Positions 11,624 to 57,077 of a DNA stretch of 64,000 nt are shown piece after piece; positions within the stretch are counted from its first letter, which is position 1, and the number at the start of each line of letters is the position of its first letter. A program made the position numbers and the translations under genes. The notes under the pieces were generated by a model. It had not been told where the DNA came from. It searched no databases and saw nothing but the letters and a program-made list of their open reading frames with translations. The DNA is from Bacilli bacterium (GTDB taxonomy: Bacteria > Bacillota_I > Bacilli_A > RF39 > UBA660): NCBI GenBank assembly GCA_017432825.1, contig JAFRIJ010000011.1, positions 172,279 to 236,278 on the forward strand, written 5' to 3'.

Positions 11624-11650
11624 AGAAGTAGAAATTATTTTTCTACTTCT
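11624..11650. terminator. Bidirectional terminator (11-bp perfect stem AGAAGTAGAAA/TTTCTACTTCT) shared by the convergent PBP and parB-like genes
   Basis: Perfect 11-bp inverted repeat with a 5-nt loop that contains the parB-like stop codon; A/T runs flank it. Confidence 0.6.
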
Positions 11651-12942
11651 ATATTTATTTTATAACTTGTGGCTTCTTCATTTTCTGTAACGTTAATTTT
11701 ATATCCTAATAATTCCATATTTGTAGTAATACTCTTTATCATATTAATAATTGGTGTTATATCTTTGCTTTCTGTATTATTTAAATTTGGAATACTATTT
11801 AAATCAAATTCTGGATTTAATGTTTCGTTAGTTGGTATTGGATTTTCTACATTTATATTTGGATTGATTGATGGTACTTCATTAGGTACTTCCATATTAT
11901 TTAGTCCTGACTCTATTGTTGTTTGTTCTTGATAATTATTTTGAAATGATAGCGGATTTGTCATTGATGGTACCTCATTATAATTACTTTGTTCTACTGA
12001 AGTAGATGATGTTTGATCTGTATTATTAAATGTTGGTATGTTTACTTCAGGACTTGGTGTTGGATCTACATTATTAAATGTTGGTATGTTTGCTTCAGGG
12101 CTTGGTATTGGATTTGCATTATTAAATGCTGGAATATTGGTTTCAGGTGTTGGTTCACTAAAATTTGGAATTGGAGCAGGTTCTACATTAATATTTGGTT
12201 GTATATTATTTAAATCTTGATTTGGTATTTGTTGATTAAGTCCATTCACTATGTTATTTGATTCTTCCATTGATGGAAAAAATCTTCCTCCAAATGCTGG
12301 CTCTGTATTCATTCCTTGTCCTAAATTTTGTTCTAATCCATTATTAATATTGTTATCCATACTTTGATTTTCATTCATTTCTATTCTTTCCCTTCTTATT
12401 TCATTTTTATCTAATTCTGATAAATTAATTATGTCATTATTTATCAAGTTATTATTTACTTCTGTTTCATTGTTTAATGAATTTTTTAATATTTGGTTGC
12501 TATTATTATTATGTTTCTTTATTAATTTTAGTTTTGAATAGATTCTGTCAATTGGAATACCAAGTGTTATACTTAATTTTTCAACATTAGTATTAGGGTA
12601 GGAGATAGCTTTATCATATAATGATGCTTCTTCTTTTCCTGTCAATTCTTTTCTCTGAACATTATTTGTTATAATCATATTTATTGCTTGTTCATCAGTT
12701 ATGTTTTCAACTATAACTGGTACTTTATCCATACCTATACTTTTAGCAGCGTTATACCTTCTATTTCCAATTATTATTTCATATTTATCATCTTTTTTTC
12801 TTACAATTAGTGGTTCTAATATTCCTAATTGTTTTATTGAATTTGCTAGATTATCAATGTTATCATTTTGAAATTCTAGATGAGCATGAAATTCACTGGG
12901 TATTAATTCTGCTATAGGTATATACGTAATTGTATTACCCAT
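11635..12942 (-). CDS. Divergent ParB/Noc-like protein: ParB N-terminal domain plus HTH plus a long Pro/Asn-rich repetitive tail
   Basis: ParB N-domain (ILEPLIVRKKDDKYEIIIGNRRYNAAKSIGMDKVPVIVE) carries GNRR in place of GERR. An HTH follows. About 200 aa of low-complexity repeats (NIPAFNNANPIPSPEANIPTFNNVDPTPSPEVNIPTFNN). Position next to rsmG is as in Clostridia. Confidence 0.7.
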   Translation of the reverse strand: MGNTITYIPIAELIPSEFHAHLEFQNDNIDNLANSIKQLGILEPLIVRKKDDKYEIIIGNRRYNAAKSIGMDKVPVIVENITDEQAINMIITNNVQRKELTGKEEASLYDKAISYPNTNVEKLSITLGIPIDRIYSKLKLIKKHNNNSNQILKNSLNNETEVNNNLINNDIINLSELDKNEIRRERIEMNENQSMDNNINNGLEQNLGQGMNTEPAFGGRFFPSMEESNNIVNGLNQQIPNQDLNNIQPNINVEPAPIPNFSEPTPETNIPAFNNANPIPSPEANIPTFNNVDPTPSPEVNIPTFNNTDQTSSTSVEQSNYNEVPSMTNPLSFQNNYQEQTTIESGLNNMEVPNEVPSINPNINVENPIPTNETLNPEFDLNSIPNLNNTESKDITPIINMIKSITTNMELLGYKINVTENEEATSYKINIEVEK

Positions 12943-17060: not shown

Positions 17061-17654
17061 TTAATCGTTTAATTTGTTTTCTACTTCTTCCCAAGTCTTA
17101 CCAATATATTCTAATGTATAATATTCTTTTCCGTCTATATTTAATTTAATTTTTTTTGAATCTATTTCACTTATATCTAATTTTATTATATATGTTGCAT
17201 CGTCTTTTTCTTCCATACAAACATCTCCATTACTTTCGTGACATCCTTTACTAAATACTGTTAGTTCATATATATTATTAGAATTATATTTTATATTATT
17301 TATTTCACCATATATTCCTCCATCAGTTTGATATCTACCATAACTAAATCCTTTATTACCTATACTAGACATATATTTACTATTATTATTAGTATGATAC
17401 CATATTCCTGTTACCATATTTAATAATTCTTGATCAGTATATATTTTAGTTTGTTCTTCTATTTTTTCTTCTGTTTTATTTATAATATCTTCTGTTTTTT
17501 CAATTATTTCTTTAGTTTTTCCTTCTACTTCTTTTTCTTTTTTATTAAATGATATTGTTTTTGTTTCAAACAAAGCAATAAATACTAGTAGCATTACTAT
17601 AATACCTATTAATAAACCAATTATAACTCCATTATTATTATTTTTATTTTCCAT
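17061..17654 (-). CDS. Hypothetical membrane-anchored protein (197 aa), inserted between jag and mnmE
   Basis: Good RBS (AGGAGAA). N-terminal TM (GVIIGLLIGIIVMLLVFIALF), followed by a Lys/Glu-rich linker and a globular C-domain. No family recognised. Confidence 0.6.
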   Translation of the reverse strand: MENKNNNNGVIIGLLIGIIVMLLVFIALFETKTISFNKKEKEVEGKTKEIIEKTEDIINKTEEKIEEQTKIYTDQELLNMVTGIWYHTNNNSKYMSSIGNKGFSYGRYQTDGGIYGEINNIKYNSNNIYELTVFSKGCHESNGDVCMEEKDDATYIIKLDISEIDSKKIKLNIDGKEYYTLEYIGKTWEEVENKLND

Positions 17655-19641: not shown

Positions 19642-19764
19642 TTATGCGCATAATTTTTTTCTTTTTTTTGCTCTTCTTTTATTTAAAACGTTACCTTTTA
19701 TACGTGCAAAAAAGCCGTGTTTTTTTGCTCTTTTAGCTTTATTTGGTTGATAAGTTCTTTTCAT
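19642..19764 (-). CDS. rpmH: 50S ribosomal protein L34
   Basis: Manual translation of the minus strand gives MKRTYQPNKAKRAKKHGFFARIKGNVLNKRRAKKRKKLCA, 40 aa. Not in the ORF track because it is under 60 aa. Confidence 0.9.
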   Translation of the reverse strand: MKRTYQPNKAKRAKKHGFFARIKGNVLNKRRAKKRKKLCA

Positions 19765-19910
19765 AATATACACCTCCAACTTAAATGCTATTTTATTATA
19801 TATGTTTATTTTATATATGTCAACAATAATATTTTTAATTAATTATATTTTTTTATTTCTTTATTATTTAATTTGTGATACAATTATGATAAGAATGAGG
19901 AGGAGTTTTT

Positions 19911-21665
19911 ATGTTTAAGGAAATAACTGCTATAAGTAAAAATTATGCTATGGTTAGGATAGATGGTACTGTTAGTGATGACTTACTTAATATGAATGTT
20001 ATATTTGAAGATGGTACTAAAAAGATTCTAGGTGAAGTTGAAGAAGTTGATAAAGATCAACTAAAAATTAGTTTTTTGGGTGAATTTATTAATGGTAAAT
20101 TTTTAGGTGGTATTATTAGAAAACCTAGTTTAACTTCTAAAATTAGAATGATTAATCAAGAAGAATTAGGTGAGTTAGTTGGAGATAATGATGATAAGAG
20201 TATGGTTTTAGGTTTATCTCCTTTATATAATAACTATCCTATTAAAATAAATATTGATGAGATGTGGAGTAATCATAGTGCTATATTTGGTAATACTGGT
20301 AGTGGTAAAACATACGGTGTATCTAGATATGTACAAAATTTATTTACTATACCTGATAAAATTCCTTTTAACAGTAACATATTTATATTTAATAATACTG
20401 ATGAATATGATAATGCTTTTAAGAGTATAAATAATTATAATATTAATTTTAATTATAAGATGTATTCAATTAATGGAGATGATAATAGTTGTATTAGACT
20501 TCCATTATGGTTATTATCAGTAGATGATTATGCTAATTTATTGGATGTTACTGAATATTCTCAACTTGCTATAATTGAAAAGATGTTGAGTTTAGTATCT
20601 GCTTTTGCTAAGAAAGATGAAGAATCTAAAAGGTATCAAAATCATTTAATTGCTAGTGCTATTACTTCTGTTTTATATACTAATCAAACTCCTGGTAGAA
20701 TTAGAGATCAGATTTTTCAAATATTGGAAAGCTGTCATACTGAAGAATTAAATTTAGATGTTGAAGTCCCTGGGGTTGGATATACTAGACAATTTAGAAA
20801 ATGCTTTGAAATTGATAGTAAAGGTGAATTTGCAGAAAGAGTTTTAATAGCTGAATATATTCAGAAATTTGTTGATAACAATACTATTTGGAATGAAGAT
20901 TATGTTCCTATATATTTTACTTTATCTGATTTGGAAGTTGCTTTAAACTTTACTTTAATATCTGAGGGATTACTTCTTAATGAAAAGTCTTATTCAGAAG
21001 CTATGGCTCTTAAAGTAAGACTTCATACTTTAAATAATAGTAGTTATAAGAAAATATTTGATTATCCTAGATTTGTTAATATGAATGAATTTATTACTGA
21101 TATTATAATGGTTGGTCAAAATAAAAGAGCGCAAATTATTAATTTTGTTTTAGAAGATATTGACGATAGATTTGCTAAGGCTATTGTTAAGGTATACTGT
21201 AGAATTGTATTTAAATTTAGTAAATCTCTTAAAGAAAGAGGAGCAATGCCTATTCATTTAATGTTAGAAGAAGCTCATAGATATGTACAAAGAGATAATG
21301 ATGTTAATATTTTGGGATATAATATGTTTGAACGAATTGCTAAGGAAGGTAGAAAATTTGGCTTAGTATTAGATTTAATTACTCAAAGACCCACTGAACT
21401 ATCTGAAGCTGTTATATCACAGTGTAGTAACTTTTTAATATTTAAGATTACCCATCCTACTGATTTGGAATATATTAGAAAGATGGTACCTAATATTAGT
21501 GCTGATGTTATTGAAAAGCAAAAAGCTCTTCAATCTGGTACTTGTGTTGCTTTTGGTAGAATGATGAAAATTCCTATGATTGTTAAGATGGAATTACCTA
21601 ATCCTGAGCCTAGAAGTTCTAATGCATCTATCTATAATAAGTGGATGATTGATTGGAAGAAATAA
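19911..21665 (+). CDS. HerA/FtsK-superfamily (DUF87-like) P-loop ATPase, 584 aa, located between rpmH and oriC-dnaA
   Basis: Strong RBS GAGGAGGAG. N-terminal beta-rich domain. Walker A GNTGSGKTYG and Walker B IHLMLEEAHRY. C-terminal LITQRPTELSEAVISQCSNFLIFKITHPTDLEYI is typical of HerA-like ATPases. Confidence 0.8.
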   Translation: MFKEITAISKNYAMVRIDGTVSDDLLNMNVIFEDGTKKILGEVEEVDKDQLKISFLGEFINGKFLGGIIRKPSLTSKIRMINQEELGELVGDNDDKSMVLGLSPLYNNYPIKINIDEMWSNHSAIFGNTGSGKTYGVSRYVQNLFTIPDKIPFNSNIFIFNNTDEYDNAFKSINNYNINFNYKMYSINGDDNSCIRLPLWLLSVDDYANLLDVTEYSQLAIIEKMLSLVSAFAKKDEESKRYQNHLIASAITSVLYTNQTPGRIRDQIFQILESCHTEELNLDVEVPGVGYTRQFRKCFEIDSKGEFAERVLIAEYIQKFVDNNTIWNEDYVPIYFTLSDLEVALNFTLISEGLLLNEKSYSEAMALKVRLHTLNNSSYKKIFDYPRFVNMNEFITDIIMVGQNKRAQIINFVLEDIDDRFAKAIVKVYCRIVFKFSKSLKERGAMPIHLMLEEAHRYVQRDNDVNILGYNMFERIAKEGRKFGLVLDLITQRPTELSEAVISQCSNFLIFKITHPTDLEYIRKMVPNISADVIEKQKALQSGTCVAFGRMMKIPMIVKMELPNPEPRSSNASIYNKWMIDWKK

Positions 21666-21996
21666 ACAGTTTATTGTGGAAAAAAATATTTAATAAAGCT
21701 ATGTTTTTTAAGGCATAGCTTTTTTTTTAACTTATTTGCACATATTTCAACATGTTAAAAAATAGTTTTCCACAGGTACTGTTGTTCGTTAACTGTGGAT
21801 ATTTGTGGATAAGTCCTTTTTTCTTTTATTTTATAAGTCTTTTATTGTTGATAATTAAGTGGAAATACATATATTATTTTTGTTTATTGTTATTTATTTT
21901 CCACATTGAAAAAAATTTGTTACTTTCTAATGAAATATATACACAATTATTTTTTTTATGTTAAAATAACTTTATAAATGTTTTGGAGGTGATGAT
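21666..21996. promoter_or_regulatory. oriC part 1: DnaA-box cluster upstream of dnaA (at least 5 boxes) plus the dnaA promoter region
   Basis: TGTGGAAAA at 21678-21686. TTTTCCACA at 21766-21774 and 21897-21905. TGTGGATAT at 21794-21802. Perfect TGTGGATAA at 21804-21812. Confidence 0.7.
21696..21729 (+). terminator. Rho-independent terminator after the HerA-like gene (AAGCTATG/CATAGCTT plus T8)
   Basis: 8-bp stem followed by TTTTTTTTT. Confidence 0.5.
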
Positions 21997-23385
21997 GTGG
22001 ATATTAATTCTTTATGGAATAATTTTTTAGATAAAATTAAAGAGAATATCTCTTCACTTTCATACGAAACATGGTTTAAGGATACTAAACTAGTTAATCT
22101 TAATGATAATACTGCTACTGTTATTGTTCCTATGCCTTTTCATAAAAAGCATTTGGTAGAAAATTATAAAAATATTATTGAAGATACTTTTTGTAATATT
22201 ACTGGAACTAAATTTAATTTTAATTTTTTATTAGAAGAGGAATGGAATTTAGAGAAGGATTCTATTGAAGAAATTATTTCTTCTTCTAGTTTAAGTAATA
22301 ATAATGATTTAGGCGGTGTGGTTAATCAATCTTATGAAGATGCTAATTTAAATCCTGATTATTCTTTTACTAACTTTATTGTAGGAAACTCTAATAGATT
22401 TGCATATACTGCTTCTATGGCTGTAGCAGAAAAACCTGGTAAAGCTTATAATCCATTGTTTTTATATGGGAAAAGTGGTTTAGGTAAAACTCATCTTATG
22501 CATTCTATTGGTAATTATATTATAGAGAATAGTAATTTAAGAGTTTTATATATTTCAAGTGATAAGTTTGTTAATGATTTTATTAATGCTGTTAGAAGTA
22601 ATGATAAAGATAATTTTGATAAAATTGATTCATTTAAAAATAAATATCGTAATATCGATGTGTTAATGATTGATGATATTCAATTTTTAGGTAATGCTAC
22701 TAAGGGTCAAGAGGAATTTTTTCATACTTTTAATGAATTATATAATTGTAATAAACAGATTGTTATTGCATCTGATAGATCTGTTGATGATTTAAAGATG
22801 TTGGAAAATAGGCTTCTTACTAGGTTTAATTGGGGACTTACTGCTAATATTACTCCTCCTGATTTTGAGCTAAGAATGAATATTATAAGAAAAAAGATAG
22901 CCCATCAAGAGTCTGCTAAAGATGTTCCAGATGAGGTTATAGAATATATTGCTAATAACTTTGCTTCTGATGTTCGTAAGCTGGAGGGTGCTATTACTAG
23001 AGTATTTGCTTACGCTCTTATGATGAATAAGGGTATTGTTGATTTAGATACTGCAGTAGATGCTTTAAAAGATCAGTTAACCGACAGAAGTGTTTATAAA
23101 AACGATATAAATAGAATTCAGACTGTTGTTTGTGATTATTTTAAAATTGATTTAGATGACATGAAGGGTAAAAAAAGGAGTCAAAATATTAATTATCCTA
23201 GACAAGTTGCTATATATTTATGTAGAACTATGGCTAATGAGTCATTTCCTAAGATTGGTACACACTTTGGTGGTAGAGATCATTCTACCATTATGAGTTC
23301 ATATAATAAAATAGAAAGAGATTTAAAAAATAATGAACAATTAAAAGTTGTAATTAATGATTTAAAAAAGATGTTATCAACATAG
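21997..23385 (+). CDS. dnaA: Chromosomal replication initiator protein DnaA
   Basis: AAA+ motifs GKSGLGKTHL and IDDIQFLG; C-terminal DNA-binding domain. GTG start 7 nt after a GGAGG RBS. Confidence 0.97.
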   Translation: MDINSLWNNFLDKIKENISSLSYETWFKDTKLVNLNDNTATVIVPMPFHKKHLVENYKNIIEDTFCNITGTKFNFNFLLEEEWNLEKDSIEEIISSSSLSNNNDLGGVVNQSYEDANLNPDYSFTNFIVGNSNRFAYTASMAVAEKPGKAYNPLFLYGKSGLGKTHLMHSIGNYIIENSNLRVLYISSDKFVNDFINAVRSNDKDNFDKIDSFKNKYRNIDVLMIDDIQFLGNATKGQEEFFHTFNELYNCNKQIVIASDRSVDDLKMLENRLLTRFNWGLTANITPPDFELRMNIIRKKIAHQESAKDVPDEVIEYIANNFASDVRKLEGAITRVFAYALMMNKGIVDLDTAVDALKDQLTDRSVYKNDINRIQTVVCDYFKIDLDDMKGKKRSQNINYPRQVAIYLCRTMANESFPKIGTHFGGRDHSTIMSSYNKIERDLKNNEQLKVVINDLKKMLST

Positions 23386-23521
23386 TGTGTTGAAATTGAT
23401 ACTTGTTATCAACAAGCTTGTGGAAAATAAATCCTTATAATATAAGAGTATAATTAACTTTTCCACAGTTTCCACTCTATAATAATAAATAATTAATATT
23501 AATAAAGAAAGAAGGATTATT
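23386..23521. promoter_or_regulatory. oriC part 2: DnaA boxes plus an AT-rich unwinding element between dnaA and dnaN
   Basis: TTATCAACA at 23406-23414. TGTGGAAAA at 23419-23427. TTTTCCACA at 23459-23467. These are followed by the AT tract TATAATAATAAATAATTAATATTAATAAAG. Confidence 0.65.
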
Positions 23522-24749: not shown

Positions 24750-25226
24750 ATGAAAGAAAAGGTAGATTATGTTATTAATTATGAAACTTTACTTATTATG
24801 CCTTATGAAAATGACAAAAGTAAGGTATATGAATATGATGAAATTTTTATAGTTAATATGAATGTAATGGATATTATTAAGAATAGTTGTTTATTTTTTG
24901 GAAGTTCTTTAGATGGTAGGAAAGAGGGAACTAAGCATTTGATTAGTTGCGAGATGAAGGTACCAATTATTGTTGAGGATAGTGGATTACTTATATTCTT
25001 TCCTACTGGATCTTATAGAAATAAATCTAATATATGGATTTCTTATAATAATATACTTAATTATTCTAAAATAGATAGTAATCATACTATGATATTTTTT
25101 AAAGAAAATAATAATATTTCTATTAATGTTAAGTATAATATTTTAGATAATCAGATTATTAGATGTATTAAATTAGATGCTGTTTTTAATAAAAGAAGAT
25201 TATGTTCAAATTTGAGTGAAAAATAG
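24750..25226 (+). CDS. ComK-family protein (competence transcription factor-like), 158 aa
   Basis: Strong match to recalled B. subtilis ComK. SCLFFGSSLDGRKEGT compares with SCRFFGSSYAGRKAGT. KVPIIVEDSGLLIFFPTGS compares with KPPIMVDPSNQIFLFPTLS. WIS and NQIIRCIKL compare with NQVYRTAWL. RBS is AAGGGGGA. Confidence 0.75.
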   Translation: MKEKVDYVINYETLLIMPYENDKSKVYEYDEIFIVNMNVMDIIKNSCLFFGSSLDGRKEGTKHLISCEMKVPIIVEDSGLLIFFPTGSYRNKSNIWISYNNILNYSKIDSNHTMIFFKENNNISINVKYNILDNQIIRCIKLDAVFNKRRLCSNLSEK

Positions 25227-55274: not shown

Positions 55275-55408
55275 AGTAATGCCTCCTTTTTGGATAATAT
55301 TATAACAAAATATTTATTTAATAGCAAAACAAATATTTATTTCTTTTTACTTTATTTTTCCTTTAAAATTTGATACAATGTATCTTGTAGGAGATAAAGG
55401 TGAGTTTG

Positions 55409-56224
55409 ATGGGAAAAATAATTGCAATAGTAAACCAAAAAGGTGGAGTAGGTAAAACTACCACTAGTATTAATTTAGCAGCATCTTTGGGTATTTTAAA
55501 GAAGAAAGTATTACTAGTTGATTTAGATCCTCAAGGAAATGCTACTACAGGTATTGGTATTGATAAGGGAAGTTTAAATAGTAGTGTTTATGAAGTTATG
55601 ATTATGAAAACTAGTATTGAAGATGCAATTATTAAGACCAAAAGTAAAAATGTTAGTATTTTACCAGCTTATTTAAATTTAGCTGGTGTGGATATGGAAT
55701 TAATTGAATTAGAAAAGCAATATCATGCTGAAGGTAAGAGATTAAATAGGGTTTTAAGACTTAAAGAGGAGTTATCTAAGGTAAAAGATAGGTATGATTT
55801 TATTTTAATTGATTGTCCTCCTTCTTTGGGAATTTTAACTACAAATGCATTAGGTGCTAGTGATAGTGTACTTATACCTGTTCAATGTGAATATTTTGCA
55901 TTAGAGGGAATAATGCAATTAATTAATACAATTATGTTGGCTCAAAAGAAAGTTAATCCTAATTTGGAAATTGAAGGAGTTTTACTTACTATGCTTACTA
56001 CTAATACAAATTTGGGTTTAGAAGTTGTTGAAAGTATAAAAGGATTTTTTAAAGAAAGAGTTTATGATACTATAATTCCTAGACTTATTAGATTGGCGGA
56101 GGCACCATCTCATGGTAAACCTATATTAGAGTATGAACCTAGAAGTAGAGGGACTTTGGCATATTTAAATTTAGCTAAGGAGGTAATAGAAAAGAATGGA
56201 ACAAAAAAAGAAAGCATTGGGTAA
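55409..56224 (+). CDS. soj: ParA-family chromosome partitioning ATPase Soj
   Basis: Sequence [19 protein letters not shown] with the deviant Walker A; 272 aa. RBS GGAG precedes it. Confidence 0.9.
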
Positions 56225-57077
56225 GGGGTTAGAACAATTATTTAGTAGTGAGGTTTTGGATTTTGATTCTTTTGAAGATAGAATAATGGAGAATGCTAAG
56301 GAATCTGATATTTTTGAAATTCCTGTTAATGAAGTTAGGCCTAATCCTTTTCAGCCTAGAAAAAAATTTGATAATGAGTCTTTAGAAGAATTAGCTACTT
56401 CAATTAAAAATTATGGTGTGTTTCAACCAATAATTGTTAAGAAAAGTATTAAAGGATATGATTTGGTAGCGGGAGAAAGAAGACTAAGGGCATCTAAAAT
56501 GGCTGGATTATCAAATATTCCTGCTATAATTAAAGATTTTAACGATGAAGAAATGAGAGAAATTGCATTGTTAGAAAATCTTCAAAGAGAGGATTTGTCT
56601 GCAGTTGAGTTAGCGTGGGCTTATAAGGGTATTATTGATAGTTTGCATATCACGCAAGATGACCTTGCTTCTAGATTGGGAAAAAGCAGGAGTAGCGTTA
56701 CAAATATTTTAGGTTTATTAAGACTTCCTTCAGAAGTTCAGAATATGGTTATTGATAATAAAATTTCTATGGGACATGCTAGAGTTTTGTCTAAAATAGA
56801 AGATGTTAATAAAATAAAAGAATTATCTAAGAAGGTTATTAATGATAATTTGAGTGTTAGGGATTTAGAGGATTTGTCTAATTCTTCAGAAATAAAGAAA
56901 AAAGTTCCTATTAAAAGAACTGTTAAAAATAATTCTGATTATTTATATATTGAGAATAGAATGAAAGAGATATTAGGAACAAAAGTTAAGATTGATAGTA
57001 AGAAGATAGAAATTCATTATAGTTCTTCTGACGATTTAACTAGAATCTTAGATATGTTAAATATAAAAGTTGATTAA
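56196..57077 (+). CDS. spo0J: ParB-family chromosome partitioning protein Spo0J
   Basis: ParB box with canonical [15 protein letters not shown] (GERRxRA) and an HTH; translationally coupled to soj with a 29-nt overlap. Confidence 0.9.

Follow-up and report, generated by a model that had tools for sequence, protein, structure and literature searches.

A HerA-family ATPase without an effector gene is conserved beside dnaA in a lineage of AT-rich gut Bacilli

Why does a gene for a HerA-like ATPase occupy the site between rpmH and dnaA, a position that is usually empty in Firmicutes, in the chromosome of a Bacilli bacterium? The gene lies in a stretch of 64,000 nucleotides (contig JAFRIJ010000011.1 of assembly GCA_017432825.1, positions 172,279 to 236,278; the window), in which an open reading frame (ORF) at 19911-21665 on the plus strand, with an ATG start, encodes a P-loop ATPase of 584 amino acids (aa). 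We refer to this gene as herA. To our knowledge, bacterial HerA is understood almost entirely as an effector platform in phage defence (with SIR2 or DUF4297) or as a partner of NurA. A preliminary description had placed this ORF between rpmH and the DnaA-box cluster, exactly where we find it, and had offered three explanations for it: a stand-alone defence or DNA-processing ATPase, the remnant of a mobile insertion at the origin, or an origin-associated DNA translocase. The analysis below leads to a different answer: herA is a real orphan HerA that belongs to the conserved core genome and is neither an insertion nor the relic of a defence system, and we infer its function from conservation and gene neighbourhood.

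The herA product matched the Pfam profile PF01935 (DUF87/HerA central domain; E = 9.1e-18, 65.6 bits against a cutoff of 23.2) and a total of 14 PADLOC HerA models, eleven of them at E < 1e-10, with PDLC04102 as the best (7.5e-100, residues 50-580). By contrast, the FtsK_SpoIIIE profile (PF01580) reached 19.1 bits, below its cutoff of 24, and aligned with the P-loop region only (residues 93-146). The curated NCBIfam models for anti-phage HerA (NF042943 and NF042944) scored 155.2 and 147.8 bits against cutoffs of 850 and 800, and those for HerA in repair (NF040937 and NF040819) 115.7 and 90.4 bits against cutoffs of 800 and 970. The best sequence match in the PDB was the DUF4297-HerA structure 9C1M (1.5e-44), and 8XAU was matched as well; other matches were SIR2-HerA (8WIV, 8YHO and 8J4U), archaeal HerA of S. 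solfataricus and T. kodakarensis (4D2I and 9X1L) and, weakly, TdpA. An AlphaFold2 model built on a 48-sequence alignment (predicted local distance difference test, pLDDT, 88.3; predicted template-modelling score, pTM, 0.86) has three parts: a RecA-like core, a seven-strand N-terminal beta-barrel at aa 2-80 and, at aa 204-400, an insertion of helices. All top matches of a Foldseek comparison of this model with the PDB were full-length matches to HerA chains (template-modelling scores of 0.6-0.76, the top match being 8YHX at 0.76). No hydrophobic N-terminus or membrane segment was seen in the protein sequence. The parts of the gene that carry this assignment are the following.

19911-21665, plus strand: herA-like coding sequence, 584 aa, a solitary HerA-family P-loop ATPase (ORF, profiles, PDB matches and AlphaFold2 model)
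19911-20156, plus strand: N-terminal beta-barrel of the HAS type, aa 1-82, short at about 80 aa (AlphaFold2 strands E2-8 through E77-80, and Walker A offsets)
20289-20312, plus strand: Walker A (P-loop) GNTGSGKT, aa 127-134 (G127, G130, G132 and K133 invariant in the 48-sequence alignment)
20520-21110, plus strand: helical-bundle insertion, aa 204-400, with a clade-conserved G290-Y291-T-R293 beta-hairpin (AlphaFold2 secondary structure and clade alignment A2)
21255-21278, plus strand: Walker B HLMLEEAH, aa 449-456 (A455 invariant; E453, E454 and H456 nearly invariant in the 48 sequences)
21345-21392, plus strand: EGRK (aa 479-482) and QRP (aa 492-494) motifs, with candidate arginine-finger and sensor residues
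21450-21464, plus strand: THPTD motif, aa 514-518 (D518 invariant)
21594-21662, plus strand: C-terminal tail LPNPEPRSSNASIYNKWMIDWKK, aa 562-584, the equivalent of the C-terminal hook (aligns with the C-terminus of 9C1M HerA; W578 invariant)

Barrel, Walker A, Walker B and THPTD motif thus stand where a HerA-like architecture had been read from the sequence, and the model agrees with that reading. Within the EGRK and QRP motifs, which we presume from knowledge of the HerA family to include the arginine finger, G480 and K482 are invariant and E479, R481, Q492, R493 and P494 are conserved in at least 90% of the 48 sequences. The hook at the C-terminus fits into and locks the neighbouring subunit in the DUF4297-HerA hexamer (PMC11291478). 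Intact motifs, a confident HerA fold and a conserved hook lead us to conclude that the herA product is intact as a HerA-family ATPase and can very probably assemble into a ring. The G290-Y291-T-R293 hairpin may contact DNA, by analogy with R284 and K287 of 8XAU; these two residues could not be mapped onto the herA product, since the helical insertion is unalignable at the sequence level.

The locus was compared with related loci at the species level, 10 from GTDB species representatives and 6 from metagenomes (16 in all, 17 with the window). The herA product is 71-92% identical across the 16 related loci, and in every one of them herA lies directly upstream of DnaA boxes and dnaA. The ten close GTDB loci (74-92% identity) all carry dnaA-dnaN-comK-recF-gyrB downstream of herA, and rpmH-rnpA-yidC-jag-mnmE lies upstream in all seven that extend far enough to that side. 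The order herA, DnaA boxes, dnaA, dnaN is kept in the six metagenome loci (71-76% identity), and rpmH and its neighbours are absent from the three of these with enough upstream sequence (3/3). As herA remains beside dnaA even where rpmH is gone, the conserved unit consists of herA, the DnaA boxes and dnaA. The spacer between herA and dnaA holds 5-8 DnaA boxes in 17 of 17 loci, and the spacer upstream of herA holds none in the 14 of 17 loci where it is readable. DnaA itself has diverged down to 58% identity across the 16 syntenic loci (70-88% in 15 of them). An empty rpmH-dnaA site, for which the preliminary description had proposed to search, did not turn up: herA was present at this position in every related genome found. 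Orthologs at this exact position with a known housekeeping annotation had also been envisaged; the orthologs are there, but their annotation in the sources reads only 'DUF87 domain-containing protein' or hypothetical protein. Three of the GTDB records (L001, L005 and L007), titled 'Muribaculaceae' or 'Oribacterium sp.', carry a Bacilli-type origin region (84-92% protein identity) and are probably mis-binned or mislabelled.

In pairwise comparisons with five species, the ratio of nonsynonymous to synonymous substitution rates (dN/dS) of herA was 0.07-0.15, the lowest of nine genes of the locus, compared to 0.10-0.19 for DnaA, 0.14-0.23 for DnaN and 0.29-0.50 for RecF. With this ratio and with thousands of homologs, the herA-like ORF is beyond doubt a real gene. 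Its GC content (0.267) and GC content at third codon positions (GC3, 0.133) are close to those of dnaA (0.266 and 0.147), its codon usage is indistinguishable from that of dnaA, and the local compositional shift that might have betrayed an insertion is therefore not seen. No meaningful flanking repeats, no tRNA and no integrase were found around herA, and no member of its clade (see below) was found among 50,697 phage records, 72,556 plasmids or IMG/VR. Relatives on plasmids are at most 30% identical and align only from about residue 50; the one example that was inspected is a SIR2+DUF87 pair with a recombinase and an IS6 transposase as its neighbours. We conclude that herA has been inherited vertically next to dnaA under very strong purifying selection, and that the idea of an insertion or mobile remnant is largely refuted.

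How far does the absence of an effector extend beyond this locus? An exhaustive, profile-free search of 1.84 billion representatives yielded about a dozen 50%-identity clusters that align to the herA product over its whole length, starting at residue 1. Together with the window protein, these full-length clusters form one clade of a neighbour-joining tree, with a shared short N-terminus, and the clade members of this tree set with readable surroundings are without an effector gene. The sister group includes P0133 (34% identity), its only member with readable context, which belongs to a SIR2-HerA operon inside a defence island. Judged from this tree, the clade is monophyletic and sister to SIR2-linked HerAs. 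Walker A starts at residue 127 in the window protein and at 127-134 in the clade, compared to 148-190 in the sister group and other defence HerAs, and this earlier start means that the N-terminal barrel region is shortened in the clade. Effectors (NurA, SIR2 and DUF4297) dock on the N-terminal barrel face of HerA (PMC11291478, PMC11472057), and the barrel spans aa 1-132 in the Paenibacillus SIR2-HerA (PMC11472057). The short barrel fits the loss of a docking platform for NurA, SIR2 or DUF4297 effectors.

The neighbourhoods of about 95 sampled loci in total follow the same division. SIR2 lies immediately upstream of HerA in 6/6 metagenome loci at no more than 31% identity and in P0133 (34%), that is, in 7/7 sampled members of the next clade, compared to 0 of about 70 loci at 37% identity or above; a DUF4297 gene was found in none of the sampled clade loci. 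Within the clade, the position beside dnaA is confined to proteins of 71-100% identity, and members at 37-59% identity are not beside dnaA. At least 17 loci (39-54% identity) have the arrangement ftsY-(small ORF with two transmembrane segments)-ylxM-herA-ffh, the operon of the signal recognition particle (SRP); 7-9 loci (38-42% identity) have herA-sepF-divIVA (Pfam SepF 1.4e-26, DivIVA 1.3e-14); six have herA-sufC-sufD-sufS, three have yqeG-yqeH-herA, and in five herA is next to HIT. No defence-island genes were seen around the approximately 70 clade loci, which lie in core operons instead. Searches of the full-text literature found no description of an effector-less bacterial HerA clade or of a HerA linked with sepF, divIVA or dnaA. 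The effector-less HerA clade is thus previously undescribed and is fixed in the core genome of a very AT-rich lineage of gut Bacilli, an unexpected branch, conserved to the same grade as DnaA, of a family whose other known roles are in immunity and end resection.

Several members of the clade have features of their own. The only recurrent nuclease-like neighbour seen in the clade is RmuC, located 44 nt upstream of herA in L018, L019 and L020 (P0126, 41% identity), where the genes further upstream differ between the contigs. The proteins P0132, P0139 and P0121 (alignment A2) have LEKAD or IESAE as Walker B and QKV or HQP in place of QRP, which suggests that they are pseudo-ATPase derivatives within the clade; the window protein has no such degenerate motifs. 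The SRP-operon relatives P0122, P0123 and P0128 (L026 and L027) end in disordered S/N/T/P-rich C-terminal tails of 250-360 aa in which short motifs recur. P0122 has EHNPALDFG three times, and P0123 and P0128 have [ST]LV[ST]F repeats and end in FI[ED]NM; such motifs may serve interactions as linear motifs. In the relatives of 829-943 aa the extensions are low-complexity S/N/T/P-rich tails only, and no enzymatic domain was fused to them. The small ORF between ftsY and ylxM is conserved in seven SRP-operon loci (for example 4332-4601 of L048; cluster C4, L041-L051); its product of 84-94 aa matches no Pfam profile and is predicted to have two transmembrane segments.

The window itself shows how herA is embedded between rpmH and dnaA.

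19642-19779, minus strand: rpmH (ribosomal protein L34), the divergent neighbour upstream of herA (ORF; the identical gene in L014 matches PF00468 Ribosomal_L34)
19795-19823, minus strand: putative rpmH promoter, a perfect TTGACA-17-TATAAT (consensus scan, 12/12 matches)
19874-19884, plus strand: candidate herA promoter with the extended -10 element TGTGATACAAT (from reading the sequence)
19897-19905, plus strand: herA ribosome-binding site GAGGAGGAG, 5 nt before the ATG (from the sequence)
21675-22004, strand not assigned: cluster of 7 DnaA boxes upstream of dnaA, none with more than 1 mismatch (box scan)
21695-21722, plus strand: intrinsic terminator of herA, with a 12-bp stem, a 4-nt loop and a T-run
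21997-23385, plus strand: dnaA, the conserved neighbour downstream of herA
23374-23467, strand not assigned: a further cluster of 4 DnaA boxes between dnaA and dnaN, none with more than 1 mismatch (box scan)

The two genes rpmH and herA are 131 nt apart on opposite strands, and the scan at up to 1 mismatch found no DnaA box between them. Ribosome-binding site and terminator bear out the statement that herA has expression signals of its own; the candidate extended -10 element was not reported by the promoter scanner, as its -35 is weak. A 70-codon ORF in the herA-dnaA spacer (21752-21964, plus strand) was considered as a small partner gene and rejected, since stop codons break its frame in L001, L002 and L006 and its apparent conservation coincides with the DnaA boxes only.

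Otherwise the window holds the typical origin-region gene set of a spore-forming Firmicute. To the left of herA the order is der, spoIVA, rsmG, mnmG, mnmE, jag, yidC, rnpA and rpmH, and herA is followed to the right by dnaA, dnaN, comK, recF, gyrB, gyrA, dnaX, recR, holB, mfd, spoVT, metS, ftsH, tilS, soj, spo0J and others. When essentially every ORF of 110 aa or more in the 64-kb window was scanned against Pfam, only core genes and no NurA, Sir2 or DUF4297 domain came up, which extends to the whole window the earlier remark that no partner gene is adjacent; no Mre11 or Rad50 gene is linked to herA either. The ComK-family gene between dnaN and recF (24750-25226, plus strand; Pfam ComK 5.3e-40) keeps its position in all related loci and is the fastest-evolving gene of the locus (45-71% identity, dN/dS 0.26-0.89). 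A 435-aa protein encoded next to rsmG (11635-12942, minus strand) has a ParB_N domain only and no ParA beside it, and the canonical soj-spo0J pair is located at 55400-57077 (plus strand), about 35 kb to the right of dnaA and not beside rsmG/mnmG on the other side. Between mnmE and jag lies a gene for a 197-aa hypothetical protein (17061-17654, minus strand) with a hydrophobic N-terminal segment and a Lys/Glu-rich stretch; it is barely conserved, with a 43-residue match in L001 and none in the other species despite syntenic flanking genes.

Is the site beside dnaA an active origin at all? At the four-fold degenerate sites of every gene in the window, the plus strand is T-rich regardless of where a gene lies or which way it points; the AT skew at these sites ranges from -0.2 to -0.76, and G usually exceeds C too. 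To the left of dnaA, the minus-strand genes resemble ftsH and tilS, two minus-strand genes on its right side, and the plus-strand genes at 0.1-4.3 kb and 9.7-11.6 kb resemble the plus-strand genes to the right of dnaA. The same bias continues for a further 10 kb to the left (L030, 1-14155), so that no switch occurs at rpmH/herA/dnaA, elsewhere in the window or over these additional 10 kb, and it is present on both sides of herA in 5/7 related species (L004 is weak and L008 mixed). A cumulative GC-skew minimum near 19 kb, considered as support for an origin, was rejected because the four-fold-site analysis reveals it as an effect of gene orientation (purine loading). Were the DnaA boxes a bidirectional origin, the bias would be expected to switch there, which it does not visibly do; independent support for an active origin is thereby removed, and the active replication origin may not be located at the boxes that flank dnaA. 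If confirmed on whole genomes, this observation would bear on where these organisms start replication. We regard the site next to dnaA as a conserved, lineage-specific location that provides no evidence for action at oriC.

What, then, does herA do? With some reserve, we consider it probable that herA encodes a vertically inherited housekeeping protein, a hexameric, DNA-dependent ATPase or translocase with a constitutive role in chromosome maintenance and not in a defence triggered by phage. By family resemblance, the protein would form a hexameric ring held by the conserved C-terminal hook, as in other HerAs, would hydrolyse ATP at the subunit interfaces by way of K133, E453/E454 and R481/R493, and would thread or translocate double-stranded DNA through the central pore; conservation and neighbourhoods suggest that it might act constitutively in segregation, in the coupling of division, in replication or in repair. 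A number of observations weigh against this assignment. The evidence for a housekeeping role consists of conservation and gene neighbourhood, and the closest characterised relatives are all defence ATPases. The HerA of type III SIR2-HerA has an intrinsic nickase activity (PMC13434337), by which an effector-independent toxic or defence activity becomes conceivable. The inspected sequence spans 64 kb, and a partner gene could lie elsewhere in the genome. RmuC, a DNA-recombination protein with a nuclease-type domain, is encoded directly upstream of herA on three contigs of one sub-lineage. The neighbourhoods vary by sub-lineage (dnaA, SRP, sepF-divIVA or suf) and so indicate no single pathway, and the degenerate Walker B or QRP of some distant members implies that ATP hydrolysis is not universally required in the clade. 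A further step beyond the housekeeping assignment, which we offer tentatively as a possible history, is that a defence-type HerA lost its SIR2 effector and part of the docking barrel and was domesticated in this gut lineage as a near-essential DNA motor of the cell cycle, one that today accompanies dnaA, the SRP operon or sepF-divIVA and that may replace or supplement the job of FtsK/SftA- or SMC-type machines in segregation or division coupling; the polarity could also be the reverse, with SIR2-HerA recruited from a housekeeping motor.

That herA is an anti-phage HerA with an unlinked effector, or a stand-alone abortive-infection ATPase acting for instance by ATP depletion or by the intrinsic nickase, strikes us as unlikely. 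In its favour, no characterised proteins are closer in sequence and fold than the HerAs of SIR2-HerA and DUF4297-HerA, a link to SIR2 marks the sister clade, HerA alone can nick DNA in the type III system (PMC13434337) and the genome was inspected over 64 kb only; against it stand a lower dN/dS than that of DnaA, a position fixed in 16/16 related loci, some 70 clade loci in core operons and never in defence islands, no representation on plasmids, phages or IMG/VR, a shortened effector-docking barrel and scores of 155 and 148 bits against anti-phage cutoffs of 850 and 800. An origin-specific translocase or remodeller, working at oriC or with DnaA in unwinding, origin segregation or the control of initiation, is improbable in our judgement. 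The order herA, DnaA boxes, dnaA does hold in 16/16 loci (71-92% identity), even without the upstream rpmH cluster, and the conservation of herA is as tight as that of DnaA. The earlier suggestion is nevertheless weakened: herA ends in a terminator of its own and is not within the box cluster, no boxes lie upstream of it, clade members at 37-59% identity reside in SRP, sepF-divIVA, suf or other loci, and the four-fold bias does not switch at the locus, over the rest of the window or across 10 kb further left.

The FtsK/HerA superfamily has members that translocate protein (EssC and VirB4/VirD4), and the SRP operon, with herA between ylxM and ffh, is the commonest position in the sister sub-lineage, where several proteins have long disordered tails with repeated short motifs. 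On these grounds herA might be a motor for a substrate other than DNA, a protein or RNA translocase or a chaperone tied to SRP targeting or secretion. We think this very unlikely, as all significant similarity is to DNA-translocating HerAs, FtsK_SpoIIIE remains at 19.1 bits, below the Pfam cutoff of 24, membrane segment and secretion-system neighbours are both lacking, and the window copy adjoins dnaA and not SRP genes. Finally, the explanation that herA is left over from a mobile element or a defence island which had inserted beside the origin is scarcely tenable. It would account for a gene in a position generally known to be empty in Firmicutes, and relatives at no more than 30% identity do occur on mobilisable plasmids beside recombinases and IS elements; against it stand the lack of any shift in composition or codon usage, of flanking repeats, integrase and tRNA, the intact ORF under strong purifying selection, synteny kept across species whose DnaA has diverged to 58% identity, and a clade not found on phages, plasmids or viral contigs.

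A housekeeping motor thus being our preferred account, an effector-less clade conserved more tightly than DnaA in operons for replication, protein targeting and cell division would be a clear case of exchange between immunity and housekeeping. It would also add an unrecognised core component of the cell cycle in a widespread, uncultured group of gut Bacilli, and it would provide a natural "effector-free" HerA with which to ask what the motor does alone.

How does herA compare with known systems? SIR2-HerA (Nezha; 8WIV/8WLD, 8YHO/8YHX, 8J4U and 8SUB) has the same domain order of beta-barrel, RecA-like core and helical insertion and the same EEAH, EGRK and QRP motifs, and it is the nearest neighbour of the window clade in the tree, at identities of up to about 34%. 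It differs in that SIR2 overlaps or adjoins HerA upstream in 7/7 sampled members of the next clade, whereas no SIR2 is encoded at the window herA, that the N-terminal region of the window protein is shorter by 20-60 residues, that the window protein lacks the C-terminal arm domain of 120 aa which the Paenibacillus protein has, and that the window herA is chromosomal, core and slowly evolving and not mobile. In DUF4297-HerA (9C1M, 8XAU and 8ZIQ), the C-terminal ELPNPEPRS...W..W hook aligns residue by residue with the window protein, but the helical insertion is unalignable by sequence, and the window herA has no gene for DUF4297 or a Cap4-like PD-(D/E)xK nuclease, a shorter barrel and a core-genome setting. 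HerA-NurA of archaea and Deinococcus-Thermus (4D2I and 9X1L) belongs to the same family of hexameric DNA translocases with a HerA fold, and its end-resection activity is a housekeeping role in DNA repair that serves as a precedent for a function outside defence (PMC12977600); however, no NurA, Mre11 or Rad50 is linked to the window herA, and the sequence is more distant than that of the defence HerAs. Since it lacks the defining partner gene and falls short of the curated cutoffs, herA is not part of the SIR2-HerA, DUF4297-HerA or HerA-NurA systems. FtsK, SpoIIIE and SftA share the ASCE superfamily with the window protein, but the latter has neither a gamma domain nor a membrane anchor and has a different N-terminal barrel, and it is not a member of the FtsK/SpoIIIE family, as its match is below threshold and confined to the P-loop. 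The analogy with FtsK would be functional: the dnaA and sepF-divIVA neighbourhoods suggest a soluble hexameric DNA pump that could serve segregation or division.

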